31,105 bases of DNA from Thermoleophilaceae bacterium (GTDB lineage: Bacteria; Actinomycetota; Thermoleophilia; Solirubrobacterales; Thermoleophilaceae), in contig DASUQG010000354.1 of NCBI GenBank assembly GCA_036280695.1, positions 1 through 31,105 on the forward strand, given 5' to 3'. How positions within the stretch are numbered: the stretch's first letter is position 1; each line of letters opens with the position of its first letter. Of the stretch, positions 4,282-27,478 are shown one piece after another. Below the pieces are notes generated by a model. The model had not been told where the DNA came from, made no database searches, and saw only the letters and a program-made list of their open reading frames with translations. A program made the position numbers and the translations under genes.

Positions 4282-4665
4282 TCAGCGATCTCGGTGGCCG
4301 TCCGGGTGACCGCCGGCCCGCTCGCGCGCCGCCAGGATCTCGGGGAGGTGAGCTTCGGCCCAGTCGCGGATCGCCGCCAGCGGCTCGCGCAGGGTGAGCC
4401 CCAGCGGCGTCAGCTCGTACTCGACCCGGGGCGGGGACTCGTCGTAGGCGGTCCGCCTGATGAGGCCGTCGCGCTCGAGCGCGCGGAGCGTCTGGGTCAG
4501 TACCTTGGGCGCAATGCCCATCGCGTTGCGGATCTCGCTGAACCGGCGCGGGCCGTCCTCGAGAACGCCGACGATCAGTGCCGTCCAGCGGTCGCCGATC
4601 CGGTCCAGCACCACCCTGCTCGGGCAGTCACGCGAGTAGACGTCGGCTGGCTGGTAGAGACCCAC
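4282..4665 (-). CDS. HxlR (DUF24) winged-helix transcriptional regulator
   Basis: CPSRVVLDRIGDRWTALIV, RRFSEI, KVLTQTLRALERDGLIRR and PPRVEYELTPLG. Carries an N-terminal Cys. Confidence 0.93.
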   Translation of the reverse strand: MGLYQPADVYSRDCPSRVVLDRIGDRWTALIVGVLEDGPRRFSEIRNAMGIAPKVLTQTLRALERDGLIRRTAYDESPPRVEYELTPLGLTLREPLAAIRDWAEAHLPEILAARERAGGHPDGHRDR

Positions 4666-15045: not shown

Positions 15046-15717
15046 TCATCGCTCCGGGGGTTCGGCGATCTCGTAGAGGTCGTCGCCGAGCTGCCTGATC
15101 CTTCCGCTGGAGACGGCGTCGGCGACGGCCCGCCTGCCGCCCCCATCGGACCAGTGCGCCGCTCCGCACAGCGCGAGGAGGCGTGCGCGAGTGAGGACTC
15201 CGTATCCGCTGAGCGTGCGCACGACGGCCTCGACTTCGGCCTCCTGTCGGCTGTGAGACCGTCGCGACGAATGGTCTGGCGAAAGCTCGCTGCGCACGCT
15301 GATCTTCACGTTGCCGCGCAGCGCGTTGGAGACTGGGCAGAGATCGCCTGCCGATTCGACGATCCGCGTGAGGTCGGCCGCCTGGAGACCGGGCACCTGT
15401 GCCCGGATCGCGAGTTCGATCGTGGTTATGCGCGGCGCACCGTCCACCTCGTCGAGTGTGCAGGTGGCCTTCACCGCCAGGCGCTCCGGCGGCGTCTTGT
15501 TCTTTCCGAGGACAAGGGCAAGGGCCATCGCGAAGCAGCTCGCATGCGCGGCCGCGATCAGCTCCTCGGGGCTCGTCTGGCCTTCCGGTCGCCCGGTCCG
15601 CGACGCCCACGTCACCCGGAGCTTGTTCAGGGCGTCGCTTCCGCTCGTCAGCCTCCCGGTTCCGCCTCCCAGCGGCCCCTCCCAGAGGATCTCGGCTTCA
15701 CGTAGTGCTACCGGCAT
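15046..15717 (-). CDS. osmC: OsmC-family peroxiredoxin with a C-terminal extra domain of about 80 aa
   Basis: AEILWEGPLGGGTG, TSPEELIAAAHASCFAMAL and LCPVSNAL, with both Cys present. The frame continues without a stop into EAEVEAVVRTL...LYEIAEPPER. Confidence 0.85.
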   Translation of the reverse strand: MPVALREAEILWEGPLGGGTGRLTSGSDALNKLRVTWASRTGRPEGQTSPEELIAAAHASCFAMALALVLGKNKTPPERLAVKATCTLDEVDGAPRITTIELAIRAQVPGLQAADLTRIVESAGDLCPVSNALRGNVKISVRSELSPDHSSRRSHSRQEAEVEAVVRTLSGYGVLTRARLLALCGAAHWSDGGGRRAVADAVSSGRIRQLGDDLYEIAEPPER

Positions 15718-16231
15718 GGTTCGCCTTCCTGTTTGCGTGGGGCCGGTGCGGTGACGCGTATGCGCCCACCGGCGCCCGCATCGAGATCGCCAACCGGTTC
15801 CAGCCGTTGATGGCCACGACAGCGAGCGTGAGCGCGACGATCTCTTCCGCCGAGAAGCTCTCCTCGAGCTTCTCGTAGACGGCGTCGGGCGCACCAGCTT
15901 CAGAGATCAAGGTGAGGTGCTCGCACCAGGCCAAGGCCGCCCGCTCACGCTCGTCGTAGCAGGGGGCGTCGCGCCACGCGGCGAGCAGGTGCAGCCGCTG
16001 CTCCGACTCGCCGAGCGCGCGGGCGTCCTTGGAGTGCACGTCGAGGCAATGCGCGCAGCCGTTGATCTGCGACGCCCTGATCTTCACGAGCTCGAGCAGC
16101 CGTGGCTCGAGCTCGGCCACGTCGACGGCGCGCTGCAGGCCGACCATGGCACGAACGCCAGCCGGGAAGACCCTGGTGTAGTCGATCCGCGGTGGCTCGG
16201 CTGGAGTGGTTGTCGGCTCGTCGGTATGCAT
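15698..16231 (-). CDS. CMD / AhpD-like protein (YdfG-like)
   Basis: LLELVKIRASQINGCAHCLDVH, YDERERAALAWCEHLT, INGWNRLAI. Start at M19 of the track ORF (16231) or at 16237. Confidence 0.9.
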   Translation of the reverse strand: MHTDEPTTTPAEPPRIDYTRVFPAGVRAMVGLQRAVDVAELEPRLLELVKIRASQINGCAHCLDVHSKDARALGESEQRLHLLAAWRDAPCYDERERAALAWCEHLTLISEAGAPDAVYEKLEESFSAEEIVALTLAVVAINGWNRLAISMRAPVGAYASPHRPHANRKANHAGSTT

Positions 16232-16239
16232 CTCCATGA

Positions 16240-16285
16240 AGCGTGCCGACGCGAGGACTCCTACGGTATGGACGAAACCGCCCAT
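16240..16285 (-). promoter_or_regulatory. Motif-1 promoter: ATGGGC-GGTTTC-GTCCAT, N22, CACGCT
   Basis: Palindrome at 16268-16285, hexamer at 16245-16240, ATG at 16231. Faces the CMD-osmC pair. Confidence 0.6.
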
Positions 16286-16322: not shown

Positions 16323-16556
16323 TCAGTAGGCGCGGCGCTCGTGGTCGAGCGGCGCGAGGATCCGCGCCGCGAGCGGTGGCGGGCAACCGCGTTCGACCAA
16401 CCCGGTCAGCGCGTGCAGGTCCACACCCAGCTCCCGCGACAGTTCCTCAGCGAGTGCCGAGTCGAAGCCGGCGTGGCGAAGCCTCGCGCGGCGCCAGGCG
16501 ACTACGTTGGCCGCTTCTTGCTCGGCCCCGGTCTGTTGTCCGGTTCTAAGTTCCAC
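16323..16556 (-). CDS. Small hypothetical protein (77 aa)
   Basis: VVAWRRARLRHAGF...VDLHALTGLVERGCPPPLAARIL looks like an ordered helical protein. It has its own motif-2 promoter 5 nt upstream of the GTG. Confidence 0.7.
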   Translation of the reverse strand: MELRTGQQTGAEQEAANVVAWRRARLRHAGFDSALAEELSRELGVDLHALTGLVERGCPPPLAARILAPLDHERRAY

Positions 16557-16561
16557 GTCCT

Positions 16562-16591
16562 ATTAGCGCACCCCAACCGGGCTCTCTTACC
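16562..16591 (-). promoter_or_regulatory. Motif-2 promoter GGTAAG-N18-GCTAAT
   Basis: Same spacing as three other sites; 5 nt before the GTG at 16556. Confidence 0.6.
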
Positions 16592-16618
16592 AGCCGAAGA
16601 TGCCGGCAAGCGGCGGCG

Positions 16619-18346
16619 TCAGAGGCTGCGAGGCGCGATCGGCTGCGCCACAGTGCCGGCGGCCGAGTGCGCCGCGCCGACCTCGCGCCGGATGTCTTTC
16701 ATGGGTTCGACGCTGCGCACTCTCGGGATAACGTCGAAGTTGTTCGGGGGCGGCGGGGACTGGGTGAACCACTCGAGGGTGTTGCCCTGCCACGGGTCGT
16801 TCCCGGCCCGCGGGCCGTGCCTGCTGCTCCACAGCAGGTTCACCACGACCATCACCACGCCGATGGCGAGCACGAACGATCCGATGGTCGAGATCAGGTT
16901 GTAGGTGGACACGCCGAGCGACGAGTCGTAGTCGTAAATGCGTCGTGGCATTCCCGACAGGCCCGCCGAGTGCTGGATCAGGAAGGTGACGTTGAACCCC
17001 ACGAACATGGTCCAGAACGACAGCTTGCCGAGCGCCTCCGAGAACATCCGGCCGGTGAACTTGGGGAACCAGTAGTAGAGCCCGCCCATGAGCGCGAAGG
17101 CGGAGCCTCCGAACAGCACGTAGTGGAAGTGGGCGACGATGAAGTAGGTGTCGTGCAGGTACCAGTCGACAGGAAAGATGGCCATCATCACGCCCGTGAT
17201 GCCGCCGATCGGAAACAGCGCGAGGAAGCCTGCCGCGAACAACAACGGTGTCTTGAGGAGGATCGAGCCGCGCCAGAGCGTGGCGATCCAGTTGAAGATC
17301 TTGATGCCGGTCGGCACCGCGATCGTGAACGACGAGAGCATGAAGAACGCCAGCACGACGGTCGGCGTCGGGGTCGCGAACATGTGGTGCGCCCAGACCA
17401 GCGCACTGAGGAATGCGATCGCCACGGTCGAGACCGCGATCGCCTTGTAGCCGAAGATCGGCTTGCGGGCGAACACCGGCAAGACCTCCGAGATGATGCC
17501 GAACGCGGGCAGCACCATGATGTAGACCTCGGGGTGGCCGAAGAACCAGAACAGGTGCTGCCACAGCAGCGGGTCGCCGCCGGCGGAGGGGTCGAAGAAG
17601 CCGGTGCCGAAGTGGCGGTCTGTGAGCAGCATGGTCACCGCGGCAGTGAGCGACGGGAGCGCCAGGATCAGCAGGTAGGCGTAGACCAGCATCGACCAGA
17701 TGAACAGCGGCAGGCGGCCCCAGCTCATACCCGGTGCCCGCATGTTGTGGATCGTGGCTACGAAGTTGATCGCGCCGAGGATCGAGGACAGGCTGGTTAG
17801 GTGCACCATCATGATCCACGCATCGATCCCGCCGCCGGGCGAGTAGGCGTCGTCGGAAAGCGGTGCGTAGGAGGTCCAGCCCGCCTGCGGGGGCTCAAAG
17901 AAGAGGCTGGCGTAGAACACGACGCCGCCGAACAGCAGTAGCCAGAACGAGAGCGCGTTCAGCTTCGGGAACGCCATGTCGCGGGCCCCGATCATCAGCG
18001 GCACCAGGTAGTTGCCGAAGCCGGCCCATATCGGCACGAGCGACAGGAAGATCATCGTTGACCCGTGCATGGAGAGGAGGCCGTTGTATGTCTCCGGGTC
18101 GATCAGCGTGTTGTTGGGCGCCGCGAGCTGTGAGCGCATCAGGAGCGCCTCGACTCCGCCCAACAGCAGGAACAGCACGGTGAGGACCAGGTACATGATC
18201 CCGATCCGCTTGTGGTCCGTCGTCGTAAGCCAGCCGAGCCAGCCGCGCGGCTCCGACCTCAGCCCGTGCAGGGCCAGCTCGGGACGCGCGGTGGCTGACC
18301 CCGTGCGTGTCGAGGCATGCGCTGACGTCGAGAGCCGCACCTTCAC
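16619..18346 (-). CDS. ctaD: Cytochrome c oxidase subunit I (heme-copper oxidase, A1 type); start approximate (GTG at 18346 or 18340)
   Basis: TTTDHKRIG, SMHGSTM, GARDMAFPKLN, WFFGHPEVY, VWAHHMF, IAVPTGIKIF, VAHFHYV, GMPRRI. The track's 660-aa ORF includes a non-homologous N-terminal extension. Confidence 0.95.
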   Translation of the reverse strand: MKVRLSTSAHASTRTGSATARPELALHGLRSEPRGWLGWLTTTDHKRIGIMYLVLTVLFLLLGGVEALLMRSQLAAPNNTLIDPETYNGLLSMHGSTMIFLSLVPIWAGFGNYLVPLMIGARDMAFPKLNALSFWLLLFGGVVFYASLFFEPPQAGWTSYAPLSDDAYSPGGGIDAWIMMVHLTSLSSILGAINFVATIHNMRAPGMSWGRLPLFIWSMLVYAYLLILALPSLTAAVTMLLTDRHFGTGFFDPSAGGDPLLWQHLFWFFGHPEVYIMVLPAFGIISEVLPVFARKPIFGYKAIAVSTVAIAFLSALVWAHHMFATPTPTVVLAFFMLSSFTIAVPTGIKIFNWIATLWRGSILLKTPLLFAAGFLALFPIGGITGVMMAIFPVDWYLHDTYFIVAHFHYVLFGGSAFALMGGLYYWFPKFTGRMFSEALGKLSFWTMFVGFNVTFLIQHSAGLSGMPRRIYDYDSSLGVSTYNLISTIGSFVLAIGVVMVVVNLLWSSRHGPRAGNDPWQGNTLEWFTQSPPPPNNFDVIPRVRSVEPMKDIRREVGAAHSAAGTVAQPIAPRSL

Positions 18347-18365
18347 ATCGGGATGGTTGGCGACC

Positions 18366-18821
18366 TTACAGAGACTCGGGCGTGCGTGGCCCCTCGGAAT
18401 GGCGGGCGCGCCCGGTGCTGAGGTGCCGTCGAGCTGGACCGCCGGCCGGCGCGTGAGCGATTCGAGCCGGTAGGGGGGAAGGTCGCGCCCTTTCAATCGA
18501 CGATGCGCCTGGCCGTCTACCGGCCCTGAGCCGACGCTCAACCGGGTTGCTCTCATCGCACGCTCGGCCGCCGGGGGCCTGCCCTTCCGCATCGGGCTCA
18601 TCGCCCTCAGACAGCGCCGCGCCGACCGCGCTCACCAGTACTGCGATCGCGACGATCAGGTACAGGACAGCGAGCCCCAGTACCCAGCCGGCGTCCGTCA
18701 GGCCCAGCAGCGCGACGGGCGCGACCACCAATCCGAGGCAAACCGCGCTGACGATCAGCAGAGCCGGGTAGCCTGCCGTCTCCGCCGCGCGGAGGGAATT
18801 GAGGATGGGGTTGCCTCGCAT
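18366..18821 (-). CDS. Small two-TM membrane protein with a low-quality tail
   Basis: MRGNPILNSL, then two long hydrophobic stretches (PALLIVSAVCLGLVVAPVALLG; WVLGLAVLYLIVAIAVLVSAVGAAL). The last ~70 codons use many A/T-ending codons. Confidence 0.5.
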   Translation of the reverse strand: MRGNPILNSLRAAETAGYPALLIVSAVCLGLVVAPVALLGLTDAGWVLGLAVLYLIVAIAVLVSAVGAALSEGDEPDAEGQAPGGRACDESNPVERRLRAGRRPGASSIERARPSPLPARIAHAPAGGPARRHLSTGRARHSEGPRTPESL

Positions 18822-18937
18822 CGAGGTCTCCCGGAGTCGGGGACTCGGTCGCCTCCCATGCTCGAGGGTCAAGGCGCTTGCTCCTATCCGGACAAAGGAC
18901 CATCCGTGCTGAGGCTGTGCGGCCTGGGCTGGGCTGG

Positions 18938-18955
18938 ATGCACCCTGAGACCCAT
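18938..18955. promoter_or_regulatory. Motif-1 palindrome ATGCAC-CCTGAG-ACCCAT, upstream of a motif-2 promoter
   Basis: Matches the 18-bp pattern but has no -10 at N22. Its centre lies 61.5 nt before the patatin ATG. Confidence 0.55.
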
Positions 18956-18972
18956 TGCGGCGGCACGAGCGC

Positions 18973-19002
18973 GGTAAGGATCCGCCCGCTCGGGGCGCAT
19001 AA
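18973..19002 (+). promoter_or_regulatory. Motif-2 promoter GGTAAG-N18-GCATAA
   Basis: 5 nt before the ATG at 19008; same spacing as the other three sites. Confidence 0.65.
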
Positions 19003-19007
19003 CAGTC

Positions 19008-19940
19008 ATGCCGCGAAAAAAGCAGCCCAAGGTGGGGTTTGTGCTCTCCGGAGGAGCCAGTCTGGGCGCGATTCAGGTCGGAATGCTGCGTGCGCTCTAC
19101 GAGCGCGACATCAGGCCGGATCTGATCGTGGGCACCTCTGCGGGCGCGCTCAACGGCGCCTACATCGCATCGCGCCCCCAGACGCCCGCGACCGCTGAGA
19201 GCCTCGCGCGGATCTGGCGCGAGCTGCGTCGCGGGCAGGTGTTCCCGCTTAATCCGCTGACCGGCTTGCTCGGCTTCCTTGGTACCCGCGACCATCTCGT
19301 CCCCGAGTCAGGGCTGCGGCGCCTGATCGAGCGACATGTCGAGTTTGAGCAGCTCGAAGAGATGCCGATTCCGCTCCACGTTGTCACGGTCGACGTGGTG
19401 ACCGGACAGGAGCTTCGTCTCTCGCACGGCCCGGTACTCGATGCGGTTCTCGCCAGCGCCGCGATCCCGGGTGTGCTCGAGCCCGTCTCCTGGGAGGGCC
19501 GCGCCCTCATGGACGGCGGCGTGGCAAACAACACGCCGATCTCCCACGCGGTCGAGCTCGGCGCGGAGCGCATATACGTACTCCCCACGGGTCACGCCTG
19601 CTCACTCGATGAGCCACCGCACGGAGCGTTGGCGATGGCGCTGCACGCGATCAGCCTGCTGACCCACCGTCGCCTGATCGACGACATCGAGCGACATCGC
19701 GCCGACGCTCACCTGATCGTCATGCCGCCGCCGTGCCCGCTGAACATCCAGCCGATCGACTTCGCCCACGCGGACGAGTTGATCGACGTCGCGCTGCTGG
19801 ACGCGCGCGATTTCCTCGACGGCGGCGGCGAGGCGCGCGAGCCCATCCGCATGCGCATGCACCGGCATTCGAGCATGCCTGGCCGGAGGCCGCGCGCTCA
19901 GCCGGTAATCGAGGCGAAGCCGCCGACGATCGCGCCATAG
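19008..19940 (+). CDS. Patatin-like phospholipase
   Basis: LSGGASLG, nucleophile GTSAG, ASAAIPG, catalytic MDGG. Confidence 0.93.
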   Translation: MPRKKQPKVGFVLSGGASLGAIQVGMLRALYERDIRPDLIVGTSAGALNGAYIASRPQTPATAESLARIWRELRRGQVFPLNPLTGLLGFLGTRDHLVPESGLRRLIERHVEFEQLEEMPIPLHVVTVDVVTGQELRLSHGPVLDAVLASAAIPGVLEPVSWEGRALMDGGVANNTPISHAVELGAERIYVLPTGHACSLDEPPHGALAMALHAISLLTHRRLIDDIERHRADAHLIVMPPPCPLNIQPIDFAHADELIDVALLDARDFLDGGGEAREPIRMRMHRHSSMPGRRPRAQPVIEAKPPTIAP

Positions 19941-20380
19941 GCCACGTGGGCGAGCAGGGTCGCGATTGGCGTGCCGCGCCCGTAGTTGCGCAGCAGGAAG
20001 CCCGGGGGCTCGAGCAGCGGGCTGCTGTTCGCCGCGGTGAGCTCGTTCCCCATGCGGGGGTGAACCGCGGGCAGCAGGACGTTGACGAGCGCCGTCGCCG
20101 AGACGATTCCGTGGAGAAGCCCGAGCAGCGCTCCGAGCGCCCACCCACTCGTGTCAGTGGCCACGAAGATCGCGTAGTAGGCGAGCGCGAACAGCTCGCC
20201 GGCCGCCAGGTGCATCAGGTACCCGAGTGCCTTGGCGCGCGCGCGGTCCCGGGTCAGCGCGGTGCCGAGCAGGAACGGCAGGTCGATGCGGGTGAGGCCC
20301 AGCTCGTTGGCCGCCCGCAATGCGGTGGTGAGCACCAGCGTGCCGATGAAGCCGCCGGCAAGCGCGCCCCAGATGCTCAC
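19898..20380 (-). CDS. Hypothetical membrane protein (about 4 TM)
   Basis: Hydrophobic helices with HLAAG, LLHG and AHVAYG. Its start overlaps the GH15 stop by 4 bp. Confidence 0.75.
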   Translation of the reverse strand: MSIWGALAGGFIGTLVLTTALRAANELGLTRIDLPFLLGTALTRDRARAKALGYLMHLAAGELFALAYYAIFVATDTSGWALGALLGLLHGIVSATALVNVLLPAVHPRMGNELTAANSSPLLEPPGFLLRNYGRGTPIATLLAHVAYGAIVGGFASITG

Positions 20381-22188
20381 GACGCGTTCGCGTTCGAGAT
20401 CGATACCGCGGCCGTGATCAGCGCGAGGTGCACCAGCCCCTGTGGCGTGTTGCCCAGAAACTCGTTCGTGACGGGGTCGATCTCCTCGGCGAACAGGCCG
20501 ACGTCGTTCGCGAGGGTGACCAGCTCGTCCATAAGGGCAGTGGCCTCGTCGGGCTGCCCGATCCGGGCGAGTGCGTCGGCGAGCCAGAACGAGCAGCAGA
20601 GGAAGGCGCCCTCGCCGCCGCGCAGCCCATCGTCTCCGCTGTAGCGCAAGAGCAGCGGACCGCGCCCGAGCTCGCGCCGTATGGCCTCGACCGTCCTCGG
20701 GAGTCGATCGGGGCGGCCGGCGTCGTAGCCGAGCAGGACCCCTAGAAGCAGGCTCGCGTCGAGCTCTTCGCGGCCGGCCTCGCGCGTGTAACTGCCGAGC
20801 TGGTCGGACCAGCAGCGCGTCTCGATGAAGTGGCCGATCGCCTTCCTTTCACGCCGCCACGTCGATTCGTGGTCGCGGGGGAGGTGGCCCGCCTCGGCCA
20901 GCCGCAGAGCGCGGTCGAGCGCCACCCAGCACATCATCTTGGAATGGGTGAAATGCCCCGATTCACGCCTCACCTCCCAGATTCCGGAGTCGGGCTCGCC
21001 CCAGATGCGGCACACCAGGTCGGCGGTCCCGGCGAGGCGCTTGCCCGTCTCGCGGTCGAGTCGTCCTCCGGCCTGCGTGTAGACCAATGCGGTCTGGAGA
21101 AGGTCGCCGTAGATGTCGAGCTGCGTTTGCCCCGCGGCGTCGTTGCCAATGCGTACCGGGCGCGAGCCCCGGTAGCCGTGCAGCTCGAGCGTCCGCTCGC
21201 GAGCCCGCTCCCCACCGTTCAGCCGGTACAGGACCTGGAGGCGTGGGTGGGTGAGCTGCGAAGCGTGCAGCAGCCACCAGAAGAACGCCTCGGCCTCGCT
21301 CGGGCAGCCGAGCTCCAGCAACGCGCCGAGCGTGAAGGCCGAATCACGCACCCAGCAGAAGCGGTAGTCCCAGTTGCGCTCGCCGCCGATCTCCTCCGGT
21401 AGGGAGGCGCTTGCCGCCGCCGCGATGGCCCCCGACGGAGCGTGCACGAGCAGCTTGAGCGCCAGCGCGCTGCGGATCACGGCATCGCGCCACGGTCCGC
21501 CATACGCGCGCTGTCCCGCCCAGCGGCGCCAGTACGCGCTGGTTGCCTCCAGGCGCCCCTCGACGTCCTCACGCCTCGGAAAGACGAGCGGCTCCTGGTG
21601 GGCCGCGCACAGCGCGATCAGAGCCGAGCTGCCCTCGCGGGCGTCGAAGCGCCCGAAGATCGCCTCATCGGCGACCTGCGCCTCACCCGCGTCCCACGAA
21701 CAGACCGCCAGCGCGTGCGGGCCGTCGGTGGCGACCGGAGTCACTCCCCGTCTCTCCAGTCGCGGCGTCCTCGCCCCATAGCCGAAGGCGGGGGTGATCC
21801 GCCAGCGCATCGGAACCTGTCCGCTGAGGCCGTCCACTCGCCGGATGAGCTCGCGCGTCGGCCCCAGCTCGGCGTCCGGCAGGGCCATGGCGTCGGTGAC
21901 ACGGACCACACCCCGCCCGGTGGTGAACGTGGTCTCGAGAAGGTTCGTGTCGGGAAGGTAGCGCCGGCTCACCTTCGCTTCGATCTCAGGCTCCAGCGCG
22001 AAGCGCCCGCCGCGGTCGGCGTCGAGAGCCGCGGCGAACACGCTGGGGGAATCGAGCTCGGGGAGGCACAGCCAGTCGATAGACCCGTCACGTGCGACCA
22101 GGGCGACGGTTCGCCCGTCCCCGATCGCCGCGTAGTCCCGGATTGGGACATAGCGCCGCCCGTTATCGCTGCTGAGCGCTTGTGGCAT
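20377..22188 (-). CDS. Glycoside hydrolase family 15 (glucoamylase / trehalase-like)
   Basis: PIRDYAAIGDGRTVALVARDGSIDWLC, SLPEEIGGERNWDYRFCWVRDS, QLDIYG, GIWEVR, FAEEID, GNTPQGLVH. Likely start is MPQAL at 22188. Confidence 0.94.
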   Translation of the reverse strand: MPQALSSDNGRRYVPIRDYAAIGDGRTVALVARDGSIDWLCLPELDSPSVFAAALDADRGGRFALEPEIEAKVSRRYLPDTNLLETTFTTGRGVVRVTDAMALPDAELGPTRELIRRVDGLSGQVPMRWRITPAFGYGARTPRLERRGVTPVATDGPHALAVCSWDAGEAQVADEAIFGRFDAREGSSALIALCAAHQEPLVFPRREDVEGRLEATSAYWRRWAGQRAYGGPWRDAVIRSALALKLLVHAPSGAIAAAASASLPEEIGGERNWDYRFCWVRDSAFTLGALLELGCPSEAEAFFWWLLHASQLTHPRLQVLYRLNGGERARERTLELHGYRGSRPVRIGNDAAGQTQLDIYGDLLQTALVYTQAGGRLDRETGKRLAGTADLVCRIWGEPDSGIWEVRRESGHFTHSKMMCWVALDRALRLAEAGHLPRDHESTWRRERKAIGHFIETRCWSDQLGSYTREAGREELDASLLLGVLLGYDAGRPDRLPRTVEAIRRELGRGPLLLRYSGDDGLRGGEGAFLCCSFWLADALARIGQPDEATALMDELVTLANDVGLFAEEIDPVTNEFLGNTPQGLVHLALITAAVSISNANAS

Positions 22189-22624
22189 GCCCGCGCGGGT
22201 CCACCGCGTAGCTGGTGAGCGGCAGGCCGAAGCGCTTCTCCAAACGCTCCTCGAGCGCGCGCTCCTGCCAATTCGCATGCTCGGAGCTCCGCAGGGCGAG
22301 CAGCATGTGATCGGGCTTGAAGTCGTCGACCGCGTCGGCGATGACCGTCAGGACGCTGCCGCGGTTGTGCGCTCCAATGGCGTGGGCGCCGACGGCCCGC
22401 ATGTGGCCGAGCACCGTGTCGAGGCGCTCGTCAGCAAGGTGGCGGACCTGATCCACATCGTCCGCAAGCCAGGCGAGCCGTCCGGGGAGGGTGGGCGTCA
22501 CAACGTAAACCTCAGCGGCCGCGCTGAGAAGCGCGCGGACCTCAGGCGGCAGGTCGTGCACTTCAGCGACGGCGGCATCGGCGACGAACAGCAGCCGCCG
22601 TATGGGGGCTTCCGAAGCGCTCAT
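22163..22624 (-). CDS. Hypothetical protein, possibly USP-like fold
   Basis: Alternating beta/alpha pattern (LLFVADA, EVYVVTP, ADERLDTVL, IADAVDDFKPDHMLL, WQE). Operonic overlaps with both neighbours. Confidence 0.65.
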   Translation of the reverse strand: MSASEAPIRRLLFVADAAVAEVHDLPPEVRALLSAAAEVYVVTPTLPGRLAWLADDVDQVRHLADERLDTVLGHMRAVGAHAIGAHNRGSVLTVIADAVDDFKPDHMLLALRSSEHANWQERALEERLEKRFGLPLTSYAVDPRGHATSAQQR

Positions 22625-22824
22625 GGCCGGCTCGAGAGCTCGGCATGGGGCGGACGCTCAGTCGCGGTCCAGGTGTCGTGGTGGCAGCTGTCGAGGATGT
22701 GGCTCGTCGCGAAGTGAGCTGCCGTCGCGCGCAGGTGGTCGAGGCAGAGCCCGGCGTTGCAGCTGCGACACAGCGCGACCGCGGGCCGCTCGTTCCCCAG
22801 CTCGAAGCAGGAATAGCACAGCAT
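22621..22824 (-). CDS. DUF2180-like small Cys/His zinc-binding protein
   Basis: MLCYSC...PAVALCRSCNAGLCLDH gives a CxxC...CxxC-x4-CxxH pattern. AGGA RBS. Confidence 0.75.
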   Translation of the reverse strand: MLCYSCFELGNERPAVALCRSCNAGLCLDHLRATAAHFATSHILDSCHHDTWTATERPPHAELSSRP

Positions 22825-22827
22825 GAT

Positions 22828-24033
22828 TCACGTCCTTTCGAGGTCGTGGAGGGGGGTATCGACTTCGATCGCGCCCTGGTCCTGGGGCATGACATCAGCG
22901 GCCTCGCCCGTCTTGCTGCTGAGGTAGGGAGCGAGATAACGGCCGGAGAGCTTGTTGGGCGGCCACCACAGCGCATCATCCGAGACTGTGGAGTCGTCGC
23001 CCGCGCCGCCGCTGATGTCTGCCCGCAGGTAGCGCGCGGCGCCGCCGGTGAGCAGCGTGCCGCGCAGTACAGGCCGGAACGGCTGTGGCTCGATCTGGAC
23101 GCCCGCGCCGGCGGCGATCGCCTCGGCGACGGCATCGGCCTGTTGGGCGGCGAGGCCGCCCTGTTTGACTGGGAAGGTCGTCGCATCGCCCGCTGCGAAC
23201 ACGTCGTCGAGGCCCGGAACCCGGCCGTGCGCGTCGGTGTGGATGAAACCCTCGTGTTCCGAGGGGATGCCACGCAGTGACGGACCGACCAGGCGCGGCT
23301 CGGTGACGATGCGGTCCACGACCAGGCACTGGTGGCCGGGGGAGATGTAGAGCTTTCCTGGAGGGCCCGGTCGTCCGTAGCTGCACGTGTGCAGGGTCAC
23401 CCCGGATTCGTCCAGGATCGTGCGGATCGCGGCGCCGGCCACGTGGCCGAAGACACCGAGGGGCTCCTCCTCGGGCGTGATAAGGCTCAGCTCGACGCCC
23501 GGATGGCTGTGCGCGGCGCACTCGGCCGCCGTCATCAAGGCCAGGTCGTACAGGGGCAGCGGCCAGCTCGCCCCGGCCGGCTTGACGAATGCCACCTTCT
23601 CGATCCGGCCCTCGCGCAGCTGGTGGAGCAGCATGCGGTACGTGGGTCCGTCGCGACCACCGCGGTAGGTGAGCACTCCCTCGGAGTGCCACTCGCGCTG
23701 CGGACGGGCGCCCAGGGCCAGCACGAGCGTGTCGTAGCTGAGTGAGTCACGATCCCTGGTGACCACACGGTGCTCGGCATGTACCACGCGGTCGAGCGCT
23801 CCACGGTGCCAGTGAGCGCCGAGCTCCGTCGCGGTGTCCTCCAGGCGGAACCCTCGTCCTCGCTGGACCTTGAACGGCTGCTGCGCGGACATCGAGCGAT
23901 TGACGAACTTCAGCTCCGGAGCCACGATCGTTATGTCCAGGCGATCCCCGGCCAACGCACGCAGCGCGAGTAGCGTCTCCAGCCCCGCGACGCCTCCGCC
24001 GGCGATCAACACCTGTCGTCGGGTGCGGGTCAT
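22828..24033 (-). CDS. FAD/NAD(P)-dependent oxidoreductase (SQR / NDH-2-like fold)
   Basis: VLIAGGGVAG, YDTLVLALGA, DVFAAGDAT, FPVKQGGLAAQQA. Confidence 0.85.
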   Translation of the reverse strand: MTRTRRQVLIAGGGVAGLETLLALRALAGDRLDITIVAPELKFVNRSMSAQQPFKVQRGRGFRLEDTATELGAHWHRGALDRVVHAEHRVVTRDRDSLSYDTLVLALGARPQREWHSEGVLTYRGGRDGPTYRMLLHQLREGRIEKVAFVKPAGASWPLPLYDLALMTAAECAAHSHPGVELSLITPEEEPLGVFGHVAGAAIRTILDESGVTLHTCSYGRPGPPGKLYISPGHQCLVVDRIVTEPRLVGPSLRGIPSEHEGFIHTDAHGRVPGLDDVFAAGDATTFPVKQGGLAAQQADAVAEAIAAGAGVQIEPQPFRPVLRGTLLTGGAARYLRADISGGAGDDSTVSDDALWWPPNKLSGRYLAPYLSSKTGEAADVMPQDQGAIEVDTPLHDLERT

Positions 24034-24395
24034 GTTCTCGCTTTCGGCAGGCCGCGCCGCAGGACTTCAGCGAGGACCACCGCGTCGTTGTGTTCGGCGT
24101 CATGGGCCGAGTAGACGAGCGTCAGCGTGCCTTCGCGCGCCCGGCGCCGGAGCCCCGCGAGGCGCGGGCGCTGGTCCCGGAGCTCCTCGATGTAGCGTCG
24201 GCGGAAATCGTCGAAACGCCTGGGCTCATGCCCGAACCACTGTCTCAGGGGAGTGCTCGGCGCCAGCTTCTTGTCCCAGTCGTCGAGCTTGGCCTGCTGG
24301 CGCGAGAGCCCACGCGGCCACAGCCGGTCGATCAGCACGCGATACCCGTCTGCGGGTGCGGCGGGCTCATATGCGCGCTTCAAGCGGACGTCCAT
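24030..24395 (-). CDS. DUF488 family protein (YeaO-like)
   Basis: LKRAYE...DGYRVLIDRLWPRG...LAPSTPLRQWFGH...FRRRYIEEL...TLVYSAHD. Confidence 0.92.
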   Translation of the reverse strand: MDVRLKRAYEPAAPADGYRVLIDRLWPRGLSRQQAKLDDWDKKLAPSTPLRQWFGHEPRRFDDFRRRYIEELRDQRPRLAGLRRRAREGTLTLVYSAHDAEHNDAVVLAEVLRRGLPKART

Positions 24396-24401
24396 ATGAA
24401 C

Positions 24402-24431
24402 GTATGCGTCGGTCCGGGTCGCCCTCTTACC
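24402..24431 (-). promoter_or_regulatory. Motif-2 promoter GGTAAG-N18-GCATAC
   Basis: 6 nt before the ATG at 24395; back-to-back with the folE promoter. Confidence 0.65.
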
Positions 24432-24452
24432 GCTCGCGATCAGGAAGCCGTT

Positions 24453-24482
24453 GGTAAGAACTGGCCGGCTCGGCGCGCAAAC
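24453..24482 (+). promoter_or_regulatory. Motif-2 promoter GGTAAG-N18-GCAAAC
   Basis: 5 nt before the ATG at 24488. Confidence 0.65.
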
Positions 24483-24487
24483 TCCCC

Positions 24488-25123
24488 ATGAGCTTGAACG
24501 ATCCGCGCGTCTCCGCGCTCGCGTTGGCCGAGCCGGTGCCCGCCGACGCAGAGCCCCGTTCCCTTGACCACGAGGCGGTGCAGCGCGCGGCGCGCGACCT
24601 TCTGCGCGCGCTCGGCGCCGATGTCGACGCCGAGGCGCTCGAGGAGACGCCGCGCCGGGTCGCCGACGCGTACGCCGAGCTGCTGACGCCGCGGCCCTTT
24701 CGGGCGACCAGCTTTCCCAACGACGAGGGCTACGACGAGCTGATCGTTGCTCGGTCGATCCCCTTCCACTCGCTGTGCATGCACCACCTACTCCCGTTCC
24801 AGGGTGTGGCGCACGTGGGCTATTTGCCGGGCGAGCGGATCATCGGGCTCAGCAAGCTTGGGCGCATCGTCGAGTTCTTCAGCCGCGACCTCCAGATCCA
24901 GGAGCGGCTGACGACGCAGGTCGCCGACTGGCTCCAGCGCGAGCTCGAGCCCAAGGGAGTCGGTGTCGTCCTCGAGGCGGAGCACATGTGCATGTCGCTG
25001 CGCGGCGTCCAGAAGCTCGGCGCCACGACCGTTACCTCGGCGCTACGCGGCCTCGTGCGCGACGACGCCCGCACCCGCCAGGAGTTCTTGGCCCTTACCA
25101 CGAGGAGTTCCCATGAGCACTGA
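24488..25123 (+). CDS. folE: GTP cyclohydrolase I
   Basis: LEETPRRVA, zinc ligands SLCMHHLLPF, GLSKLGR, QIQERLT, EAEHMCMSLRGV. Confidence 0.96.
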   Translation: MSLNDPRVSALALAEPVPADAEPRSLDHEAVQRAARDLLRALGADVDAEALEETPRRVADAYAELLTPRPFRATSFPNDEGYDELIVARSIPFHSLCMHHLLPFQGVAHVGYLPGERIIGLSKLGRIVEFFSRDLQIQERLTTQVADWLQRELEPKGVGVVLEAEHMCMSLRGVQKLGATTVTSALRGLVRDDARTRQEFLALTTRSSHEH

Positions 25124-26357
25124 CCAGACGCACGTGATCGTCGGCGCAAGCCTCGCCGGCGCCAAGGCTGCCGAGACGCTCCGCGAGGAGGGCTTCGAGG
25201 GGCGCGTCGTCTTGGTGGGCTCGGAGGAGGAGCGCCCGTACGAGCGCCCGCCGCTGTCCAAGGACTACCTGCGCGGCGAGGTGGGCCGCGAGAAGGTCTA
25301 CGTCCACGAGGAGAATTTCTACGTCGAGCACGAAATCGAGCTACAGCTTGGCCGCACCGCGGTGGGCCTCGACACCCAGAGTTGTGAGTTGGAGCTCGAC
25401 GGTGGCGAGCGGCTGAGCTACGACCGCCTCCTGTTGACGACGGGCGCCGAGCCGCGCCGGCTCTCCGTCCCGGGCGCCGAGCTCGACGGGGTCCTCTACC
25501 TTCGTAGCGTCAGCGACTCCGACGCGCTGCGCGAGCGATTCGACCGCGGCGGCGCGGTGGTCGTCGTCGGCGCCGGCTGGATCGGCGCCGAGGTCGCCGC
25601 GTCCGCCCGCCAGCGCGGCCTCGACGTGACCGTCATCGAGCCTGCTTCCGTACCGCTTGAGCGCGTGCTCGGCAAGGAAATCGGCGCCGTCTACGGCGAG
25701 ATCCACGTGGATCACGGCGTCCGGATGCTGATGGGCACCGGCGTCGAGGCGCTCGAGGGGGACGGCGCGGTCGAGCGTGTGCGAACCAGCGACGGCCGTG
25801 TCATCGACACCGACTTCGTCGTCGTGGGGGTGGGTGTGCAGCCGCGCACCGCCCTGGCGGCCGACGCCGGTCTGGCCATCTGGAATGGCGTTCTCGTTGA
25901 CGAGCGACTTCGGACAAACGCGCCGGGTGTGTTCGCCGCCGGCGACGTGGCCAATGCGCAGCATCCCTTCTACGACGAGCCGATCCGCGTCGAGCACTGG
26001 GCCAATGCGCTCAACCAGGCGCCGGCCGCCGCCCGGAACATGCTCGGCCAGTCGATCCCCTACGATCGCCTGCCGTACTTCTTCTCCGACCAGTACGACG
26101 TCGGCATGGAGTACTCCGGCTTGGCCCGCGGCTGCGACCGAGTCGTCGTCCGGGGGGATCCCGCAGAGCGAGAGTTCGTCGCCTTCTGGATGTTCCAGGA
26201 TCGCGTGATGGCGGGCATGAACGTCAACGTCTGGGACGTGACCGACCCCATCAGGCGTCTCATCGGAGAGCGGATTCCCGTCGACGACCGGCAGCTCGCC
26301 GACATCGACCTACCGCTCGACCAGCTCGCCGCCGCGACGCGACGGCGCGTGGCATGA
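25113..26357 (+). CDS. Ferredoxin reductase-like FAD-dependent pyridine nucleotide oxidoreductase
   Basis: Start MSTDQTHVIVGASLAG after GAGGAG. YERPPLSKDYL, VVVGAGWIGAE, FAAGDVA, RVEHW, PYFFSDQYD. Confidence 0.93.
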   Translation: MSTDQTHVIVGASLAGAKAAETLREEGFEGRVVLVGSEEERPYERPPLSKDYLRGEVGREKVYVHEENFYVEHEIELQLGRTAVGLDTQSCELELDGGERLSYDRLLLTTGAEPRRLSVPGAELDGVLYLRSVSDSDALRERFDRGGAVVVVGAGWIGAEVAASARQRGLDVTVIEPASVPLERVLGKEIGAVYGEIHVDHGVRMLMGTGVEALEGDGAVERVRTSDGRVIDTDFVVVGVGVQPRTALAADAGLAIWNGVLVDERLRTNAPGVFAAGDVANAQHPFYDEPIRVEHWANALNQAPAAARNMLGQSIPYDRLPYFFSDQYDVGMEYSGLARGCDRVVVRGDPAEREFVAFWMFQDRVMAGMNVNVWDVTDPIRRLIGERIPVDDRQLADIDLPLDQLAAATRRRVA

Positions 26358-27478
26358 ACCGCCTGCGGGCCCTGCACGACGCCGGCGTCTCGATCTGGCT
26401 TGACACGCTCTCGCGAGAGTTGCTGGACAGCGGCGACTTCGCCCGACTGGTAGCGGACTGTGCGGTGACGGGGGCGACCTCGAATCCGACGATCTTCGCG
26501 AAGGCGATCACCGGTTCCGAGCGCTACGACGCCCAGTTGCGGGATGCCGTCGCCCAGGGAACGGAGAACGCCCAGGAGCTGTTCTTCGCACTCGCGCTCG
26601 AGGACATCCGCCGCGCAGCCGACCTGCTTCGCCCCGCCTACGACGAGAGCGACGGCCGCGACGGGTTCGTCTCCTTCGAATGCACCCCCGACCTCGCCTA
26701 CGACACAGATGCGACGATTGCGCAGGCGATCGAGCTGTGGGAGCGCATCGACCGGCCGAACGTGATGATCAAGGTCCCCGCCACCGAGGCGGGGATCCCC
26801 GCCATCGAGGAGCTGATCGCGCGGGGGATCAACGTCAACATCACTCTGCTGTTCTCACTCGCCCGCTACGAGCAGGTGATCGACGCCTACGTCGCGGGCC
26901 TCGCGCAACGGCTCGAGGCCGGCGAGCGCGTTGACGTGATCTCGTCCGTCGCGTCGTTCTTCGTCTCACGCGTCGACGCCAAGGCCGACCCGCTGCTACC
27001 CGTCGGGTCCGACCTGCGCGGCCGCGTCGCGATCGCCAACGCCCACCGCGCCTACGCGCGCTACCGCGAGCGCTTCGCAGATGACCGCTGGCTTACGCTG
27101 CACGAGGCGGGCGCCCGACCGCAGCGGCCGCTGTGGGCGAGTACCGGCACCAAGGACCCCAGCTACTCCGACGTGCTCTACGTGGAGGAGCTGATCGCCC
27201 CGGAGGTCATCAACACGATGCCGGAGGCCACCCTGCGCGCCTTTGCCGAGCACGGCAACGTGGGCCGCGCGCTCAGCGTCGATGCTGAGGCGGCCGCCGA
27301 GACCCTCCTCCGGGCCGATCGCGCCGGGGTCGACGTCGCTGCCATCACGGCCGCCCTGGAACGCGAGGGAGTGCGCTCCTTCTGCGACTCCTACCACCAG
27401 CTGCTCCAATGCATCGAGGCAAAGAAGGCGCAGATCGCTTCCGCCAGCGGAGGCCCGGGCGCACGTTCCGACCGGTGA
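26354..27478 (+). CDS. tal: Transaldolase
   Basis: SIWLDTLSR, GATSNPTIF, Schiff-base Lys in NVMIKVPAT, NVNITLLFS, RPQRPLWASTGTK, NTMPEAT. Confidence 0.95.
   Translation: MNRLRALHDAGVSIWLDTLSRELLDSGDFARLVADCAVTGATSNPTIFAKAITGSERYDAQLRDAVAQGTENAQELFFALALEDIRRAADLLRPAYDESDGRDGFVSFECTPDLAYDTDATIAQAIELWERIDRPNVMIKVPATEAGIPAIEELIARGINVNITLLFSLARYEQVIDAYVAGLAQRLEAGERVDVISSVASFFVSRVDAKADPLLPVGSDLRGRVAIANAHRAYARYRERFADDRWLTLHEAGARPQRPLWASTGTKDPSYSDVLYVEELIAPEVINTMPEATLRAFAEHGNVGRALSVDAEAAAETLLRADRAGVDVAAITAALEREGVRSFCDSYHQLLQCIEAKKAQIASASGGPGARSDR

Follow-up and report, generated by a model that had tools for sequence, protein, structure and literature searches.

A conserved GTAAG-type putative promoter motif in Thermoleophilaceae and its probable assignment to a family of extracytoplasmic function sigma factors

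Among described promoters, those closest to the element studied here, a bipartite motif GGTAAG-N18-GCWWA found in a stretch of Thermoleophilaceae DNA, are read by extracytoplasmic function (ECF) sigma factors in the ECF40 group, SigD of Mycobacterium and Corynebacterium and ShbA of Streptomyces. They have the forms GTAAC-N17-18-CGAT and CGTAAC-N16-CGATGA (PMC12019637). In ShbA-type ECF promoters C-12 and G-11 are conserved, and the -10 element of shbAp1 is CGCATC (PMC12019637). A second system of interest is the sigma-28 factor WhiG, whose targets have been defined by exact T(A/C)AA and GCCGA elements with an invariant central CGA (bioRxiv 10.64898/2026.01.14.699351). The Thermoleophilia themselves are abundant soil actinobacteria in which almost no gene regulation has been studied experimentally.

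The stretch analysed, referred to below as the window, is the whole of contig DASUQG010000354.1 (31,105 nucleotides; C354, where C stands for contig) of assembly GCA_036280695.1. This is a metagenome-assembled Thermoleophilaceae genome (G000, the source genome) of 2.74 Mb in 414 contigs, with 71% G+C and a completeness of about 70%; genomes of relatives are labelled G002, G010, G011, G014, G016 and G141. Near-identical DNA is present in 19 metagenome runs of soil, rhizosphere and root from about ten studies. Four copies of the motif in the window are very likely to be promoters of a single alternative-sigma regulon, judging from the comparisons described below. It is probable that this regulon is small and is read by an ECF (group 4) sigma encoded outside the window.

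The first-pass annotation of this DNA had described four copies of the motif with 18 nt between the two elements, each 5-6 nt ahead of a start codon. It had ascribed them to an alternative sigma of group 3 or ECF type and had proposed a genome-wide motif scan and an inventory of sigma-70-family genes as checks; both were carried out. The four sites lie ahead of a 77-aa gene, a patatin gene, an operon that begins with DUF488 and an operon that begins with folE. A pattern scan for GGTAAG-N18-GCWWA matched the window four times and no more, at 16563-16591 (-), 18973-19001 (+), 24403-24431 (-) and 24453-24481 (+), and matched none of 100 dinucleotide-preserving shuffles of it. Reading the DNA confirmed the start codons at the distances described (Table 1), and the genes behind the sites are long open reading frames with high third-position G+C. 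The observation of four sites is secure. In the whole of G000 the strict pattern occurs seven times, with the 18-nt spacer only: no match was found with a spacer of 16, 17, 19 or 20 nt, or with scrambled hexamers.

A weight matrix was built from 32 sites, all of them in relatives, with G000 left out. The matrix reads nGTAAGAAc-N12-GnCGCTAAs and carries information at bases outside the search pattern, namely the AA after GTAAG and the C before GC; the best consensus is sGTAAGAA-N15-CGC(T/A)AAs. A scan of G000 with it brought out eight sites that reach 20 bits, three of which are window sites; the reversed control had none at that level. Individual scores in the window are 29.6 (folE), 22.0 (77-aa gene), 20.7 (patatin) and 14.7 bits (DUF488). 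At the sites examined in G000, in relatives and at sigma loci, the motif is bipartite, has a fixed spacer and is always on the strand of the gene.

The motif also stands ahead of an ECF sigma gene of G000, on contig C255. A terminator-like hairpin comes first there, followed by CGTAAG-N18-GCTAAG and, 5 nt on, by the GTG of an 83-aa gene; this gene runs through a TGA/TTG overlap into the sigma gene, whose product matches region 4 but not region 3 in Pfam. A motif so placed, ahead of a sigma operon, is the classic mark of ECF autoregulation. Further copies on C255, seen in a relaxed scan, precede a DoxX-like gene and a 165-aa gene. Orthologues of the sigma were found in 19 of 24 same-genus genomes sampled and, where found, the motif is kept upstream while the spacer varies.

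For a class-wide sample, GTDB species genomes were scanned with an alignment of the sigma, which gave at least 503 relatives, and 80 were kept. A site of at least 14 bits on the strand of the sigma gene, no more than 500 nt upstream, was present at 50 of these 80 loci. Their upstream regions held 102 motif matches in total, against none in reversed controls, and divergent back-to-back pairs recur among them. The kept loci carry the labels Thermoleophilaceae, Solirubrobacterales, Gaiellales, Miltoncostaeaceae or unclassified Actinomycetota. A single sigma record of the GTDB scan is labelled Anaeromyxobacteraceae. Same-genus relatives have the label Thermoleophilaceae. As far as searched, the sigma family is confined to Thermoleophilia.

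The motif is conserved at the target genes. Five good relatives have one to six strict sites per genome, against zero to three control matches, and nearly all of the sites lie no more than about 10 kb from a sigma gene copy. The genes behind them are orthologues of the small protein with the sigma, DoxX, folE, the 153-aa gene of the DUF488 operon and transaldolase. The folE orthologues in G010, G002 and G014 keep both the motif and the 5-nt spacing. G014 also keeps the divergent DUF488/folE double promoter, with AGTAAG-N18-GCTTAC on the DUF488 side. The search for patatin orthologues in the genus yielded only two, in G011 and G016, and each has the motif, 5 nt and an ATG, in flanks that otherwise differ. 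The 153-aa orthologue has a motif copy of its own in G016 and G014, and small-protein orthologues are preceded by the motif in many genomes. G000 itself has a second GTP cyclohydrolase I gene (folE) on C169, 75% identical to that of the window and with a strong site, and a second GH15 gene on C11 (43% identity) behind a weaker look-alike site. In G011 (C18), G014 (C8) and G016 (C1), genes of the window island (from among folE, patatin and the 153-aa gene) were seen within a few kb of an ECF sigma copy.

Co-occurrence of motif and sigma was tallied by hand in 121 genomes of the order; as related genomes are not independent samples, the counts are descriptive and no statistical test was applied. 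In the 40 genomes with the C255-type sigma family there were about 87 strict sites and about 48 control matches; the 81 genomes without it had about 37 and about 188. Enrichment of the motif is limited to the genomes that carry the family. In the sigma-positive relatives, about 63 of 80 sites are on the contig of the sigma gene, within about 15 kb of it.

These results bear on the main rival to the C255-type sigma, a cascade in which the motif is recognised by a different sigma that controls the regulon and the ECF operon alike. The inventory gave at least 23 sigma-70-family matches in G000 and so offers candidates: three SigB/F/G-type members above the cut-off, or another of about 15 ECFs. 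Sigma cascades exist, ShbA for example transcribing hrdB (PMC12019637), and some 40% of the sigma loci are without a detectable site. The co-occurrence comparison was made for SigB/F/G and, among the ECFs, for the C255-type family only. SigB/F/G-type sigmas are present in 108 of the 121 genomes and therefore do not track the motif, which is enriched only in the 40 with the C255-type family and adjoins that gene. It is also unlike the SigB/F consensus, GTTT-N-GGGTAT. A cascade of this kind is, in our judgement, unlikely. The C255-type ECF family is the best-supported candidate for the cognate sigma, and we consider it likely, from the comparative evidence, that it is the right one.

The position of the start codon is a further feature of the sites. 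Among 129 unique sites in relatives, the start codon follows the C of CGC by 12 nt at 42 sites and by 13 nt at 22, together 64 of 129. At most of the others the leader is about 20-50 nt long, and nine sites have no open reading frame within 120 nt. If the C of CGC is taken as -12, the ShbA register, three window sites have their start codon at the predicted +1, as with the GTG at 16556, and the fourth has it at +2. The position of the ATG relative to the motif is conserved in orthologues. The 5-6 nt between the -10 element and the start codon leave no room for a ribosome-binding site; together with the start codon at the predicted +1 or +2, this leads to the prediction, drawn from the DNA, that the target mRNAs are leaderless.

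The same geometry bears on the idea that the motif is not a promoter but the site of a transcription factor, a repressor or activator, which overlaps housekeeping promoters. A conserved upstream element can in principle be an operator, and in its commonest form (GTAAG ... GCTAAG) the motif has TAAG in both halves. The TAAG of the second half varies across the family, where CGCAAAC and CACCAAT also occur, and the motif is bipartite, asymmetric and always oriented with the gene. Its strict spacer, and the fixed 12-13 nt to the start codon in half of the 129 sites, are promoter geometry. No correctly placed TANNNT -10 element was found beside the motif at the window sites, and the motif is tied to a sigma gene rather than to the gene of a DNA-binding regulator. 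The transcription factor explanation thus appears improbable.

The first-pass annotation had also noted a resemblance to the sigma-28/WhiG consensus, TAAA-N15/16-GCCGATAA. TAAG-N15-GGCGCTAA agrees with TAAA-N15-GCCGATAA at 9 of 12 positions, and G000 encodes a true WhiG (NF004935, 348.9 bits against a cut-off of 343; TIGR02479, 285 bits). As an explanation of the sites it fails, because every copy in the window reads TAAG and CGC where T(A/C)AA and the central CGA are expected of a WhiG target. The gene set differs too, folE, patatin, DUF488 and GH15 not being flagellar, pilus, chemotaxis or c-di-GMP genes, and the motif follows the ECF gene, not whiG. The likeness is superficial, and it is very improbable that the sites are sigma-28 promoters.

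WhiG seems, moreover, to have a regulon of its own in G000. Canonical sigma-28 patterns mostly matched coding sequence, and only a few GCCGATA sites in regions of low third-position G+C were followed. T(A/C)AA-N16-GCCGATA sites were found in non-coding DNA at C74:2527-5045 (L134; three sites) and on C55 and C169. Of the three C74 sites, two lie ahead of proteins that bear a pilin-type N-terminal methylation motif (N_methyl) and one ahead of a GT87-like membrane protein. The pilin-like targets fit the link between WhiG and pili described in Rubrobacter (PMC8325347). The GCCGATA sites on the three contigs are probably the WhiG regulon of G000.

The reading that we prefer, an ECF regulon served by the C255-type sigma, would work as follows. 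Region 4 of the sigma would bind the -35 element sGTAAGAA and region 2 the -10 element CGC(T/A)AA, 15 nt beyond it. With CG at -12/-11, as in ShbA/SigD-type ECF promoters, transcription would start at the start codon or one base before it and give leaderless mRNAs. The same promoter on the sigma operon would provide positive autoregulation. We infer the binding of the motif by the sigma, the position of the transcription start and the inducing signal from the comparisons above. The regulon content, redox proteins of the AhpD/OsmC/DoxX type, GTP cyclohydrolase I accompanied by a flavoprotein reductase and transaldolase, a GH15 protein resembling trehalase, and patatin, suggests a response of a soil bacterium to oxidative, desiccation or starvation-type stress. 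The proposal of a dedicated alternative sigma for the four units is thus supported, and is resolved to the ECF type, by a motif that stands ahead of an ECF operon, is enriched only together with that sigma family and is kept at orthologues of the target genes.

Several points weigh against this reading. The site at 24402-24431 is weak, at 14.7 bits, and four reversed-control matches reach 14 bits. Only about 60% of the sigma loci have a site at the threshold chosen. Autoregulation and co-occurrence are the usual ECF inference and are no proof of which sigma reads the motif, so that the cascade discussed above is possible. The support comes from sequence comparison, the RNA-library contigs over the region being uninformative. 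The window island and the sole assembled copy of the sigma gene are on separate contigs of G000 and, at about 70% completeness, a closer paralogous sigma beside the island may have been left unassembled. Finally, the sigma could not be placed in a numbered ECF group, and a promoter prediction for its group may already have been described. A full-text search of the literature for ECF with GTAAG returned nothing relevant, and the text of the ECF reclassification paper (PMC7826278) contains nothing on these taxa or on TAAG.

The C255 sigma lies outside the ShbA/SigD subfamily (NF007230, 25 bits against a cut-off of 209), and a sequence search of the PDB with it gave no match. Its putative promoters share with those of ECF40 a bipartite architecture, a -35 core of GTAA plus one base, a CG that opens the -10 element at -12/-11, a spacer of 16-18 nt, an autoregulated sigma gene and the phylum Actinomycetota. 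They differ in that the last base of the -35 core is G, not C, and is followed by AA, and in that the -10 element is CGC(T/A)AA, not CGAT. GTAAC-N16-18-CGAT does not describe the sites, since GTAAG and CGC(T/A) differ from it at conserved, information-rich positions. The targets here are stress or metabolic genes rather than hrdB, and many of the transcripts are predicted to be leaderless.

A small regulon around the sigma gene, a group-specific promoter ahead of the sigma operon and stress-like content with AhpD/OsmC/DoxX-type redox proteins are shared with ECF regulons of the SigR/SigE/SigW type. Unlike those, the sigma gene here has no recognisable anti-sigma gene of the ZAS or transmembrane type adjoining it; a small protein is found instead, at 35 of the 80 loci. 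Autoregulated ECF regulons are a known, textbook mechanism. Less usual here are the targets, predicted to be leaderless, and the small partner protein, which belongs to no known family.

That protein, of 83 aa and encoded just upstream of the C255 sigma, is a paralogue of the 77-aa protein of the window (74% identity). At the 35 loci mentioned the small-protein gene encodes 60-90 aa, is immediately upstream of the sigma gene and is translationally coupled to it. The family comprises proteins of 60-135 aa, with 1974 representative clusters (50% identity) at E≤1e-3, and its alignment has invariant W, R, H, C and P positions. It has no Pfam entry. The predicted structure has four helices (mean pLDDT 68); a Foldseek search of the PDB with this model returned nothing at E≤0.001, and a sequence search of the PDB gave no match. 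Prediction of a complex of the 83-aa protein with the ECF sigma scored 0.00, which counts neither for nor against binding. We suggest, tentatively, that this small His/Cys family could be a new kind of ECF regulator, for example a redox-sensing anti-sigma or a co-factor. If so, it would form part of a new Thermoleophilia-specific ECF module driving a wholly leaderless regulon.

For the Thermoleophilia, the analysis provides a promoter consensus, a candidate cognate sigma, a conserved target set and a partner protein that can be tested. A group of ECF-driven mRNAs that are probably leaderless is a further product. With its unusual -35 (GTAAG) and -10 (CGCTAA) elements, the sigma-promoter pair is a possible orthogonal part.

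The predicted promoters and their genes are listed in Table 1. The gene identities named in the first-pass annotation (patatin, DUF488, oxidoreductase, DUF2180, GH15, folE, reductase and tal) were borne out by Pfam. Additions to its gene list are the 153-aa gene in the DUF488 operon and the CMD/AhpD-like and OsmC-like genes after the 77-aa gene. Same-strand order and short gaps suggest that the last two are co-transcribed with the 77-aa gene. The folE and DUF488 promoters are back to back, with their -35 elements 21 nt apart.

Table 1 Predicted promoters, transcription units and genes of the window, and the sigma operon on contig C255 of the same genome
Feature	Coordinates	Strand	Details
Predicted promoter of the 77-aa gene unit	16562..16591	-	GGTAAG-N18-GCTAAT, 5 nt, GTG at 16556
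77-aa gene	16323..16556	-	Small helical family; no Pfam or NCBIfam match
CMD/AhpD-like gene	15698-16285	-	Pfam; downstream in the unit of the 77-aa gene
OsmC-like gene	within open reading frame 15046-15894	-	Pfam; start uncertain; downstream in the unit of the 77-aa gene
Predicted promoter of the patatin gene	18973..19002	+	GGTAAG-N18-GCATAA, 5 nt, ATG at 19008
Patatin-like phospholipase gene	19008..19940	+	Pfam PF01734, E=3.7e-36
Predicted promoter of the DUF488 operon	24402..24431	-	GGTAAG-N18-GCATAC, 6 nt, ATG at 24395; weakest of the four
DUF488 operon, five same-strand genes	20377..24395	-	Pfam; gene junctions overlap or abut
DUF488	24030-24395	-	Pfam
Pyr_redox_2 oxidoreductase	22828-24033	-	Pfam
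DUF2180	22621-22824	-	Pfam
153-aa gene	22163-22624	-	Between DUF2180 and GH15
GH15/trehalase-like	20377 to about 22160-22278	-	Pfam
Predicted promoter of the folE operon	24453..24482	+	GGTAAG-N18-GCAAAC, 5 nt, ATG at 24488
folE operon	24488..27478	+	Gene ends overlap; Pfam
folE (GTP cyclohydrolase I)	24488-25123	+	Pfam
Ferredoxin-reductase-like flavoprotein	about 25120-26357	+	Pfam
Transaldolase	26354-27478	+	Pfam
ECF sigma, 218 aa	G000:C255:2726-3382	-	TIGR02937, 55.3 bits (cut-off 42.9)
83-aa gene	L012 3412-3663	-	Directly upstream of the C255 sigma; same family as the 77-aa gene

Upstream of the 77-aa gene's promoter, with its end 27 nt away, is a gene for COX1, cytochrome oxidase subunit I (E=1.8e-169), at 16619-18601 (-). 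The metatranscriptome data on the region consist of contigs that cover small shares of it. RNA-library contigs pile up on the conserved core of COX1 and probably come from many organisms. An exact 186-nt contig from a soil metatranscriptome library spans 24314-24499, and with it both divergent promoters. It may derive from read-through or antisense transcription, or from carried-over DNA.

Genome-wide signals around crudely called gene starts of G000 were less distinct. De novo promoter discovery by position-specific composition was swamped by the coding signal, and the histogram of distances from GGTAAG to the start has only a modest peak, at 35-36. Positional k-mers gave no more than hints of a GGGTA/TAnnnT-type -10 element and of AGGAG as ribosome-binding site. 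Some 35-37 nt ahead of the crude starts there is an excess of the k-mers CGTGA, GTGAT and TGATC, and a perfect GGTGATCACC palindrome is present upstream of the patatin gene of G011. Both may be related to a palindrome that the first-pass annotation had called motif 1.

The top-scoring site of G000 (33.8 bits) is at C104:13420-13451 (-), also L014 about 4421-4452. It is followed by a 16-codon open reading frame only, in about 300 nt without a convincing gene, and an Rfam search of the DNA downstream of it gave no match. Orphan sites like this one are also present in G010 and G141, and the C104 site may serve a small peptide or an ECF-dependent small RNA.

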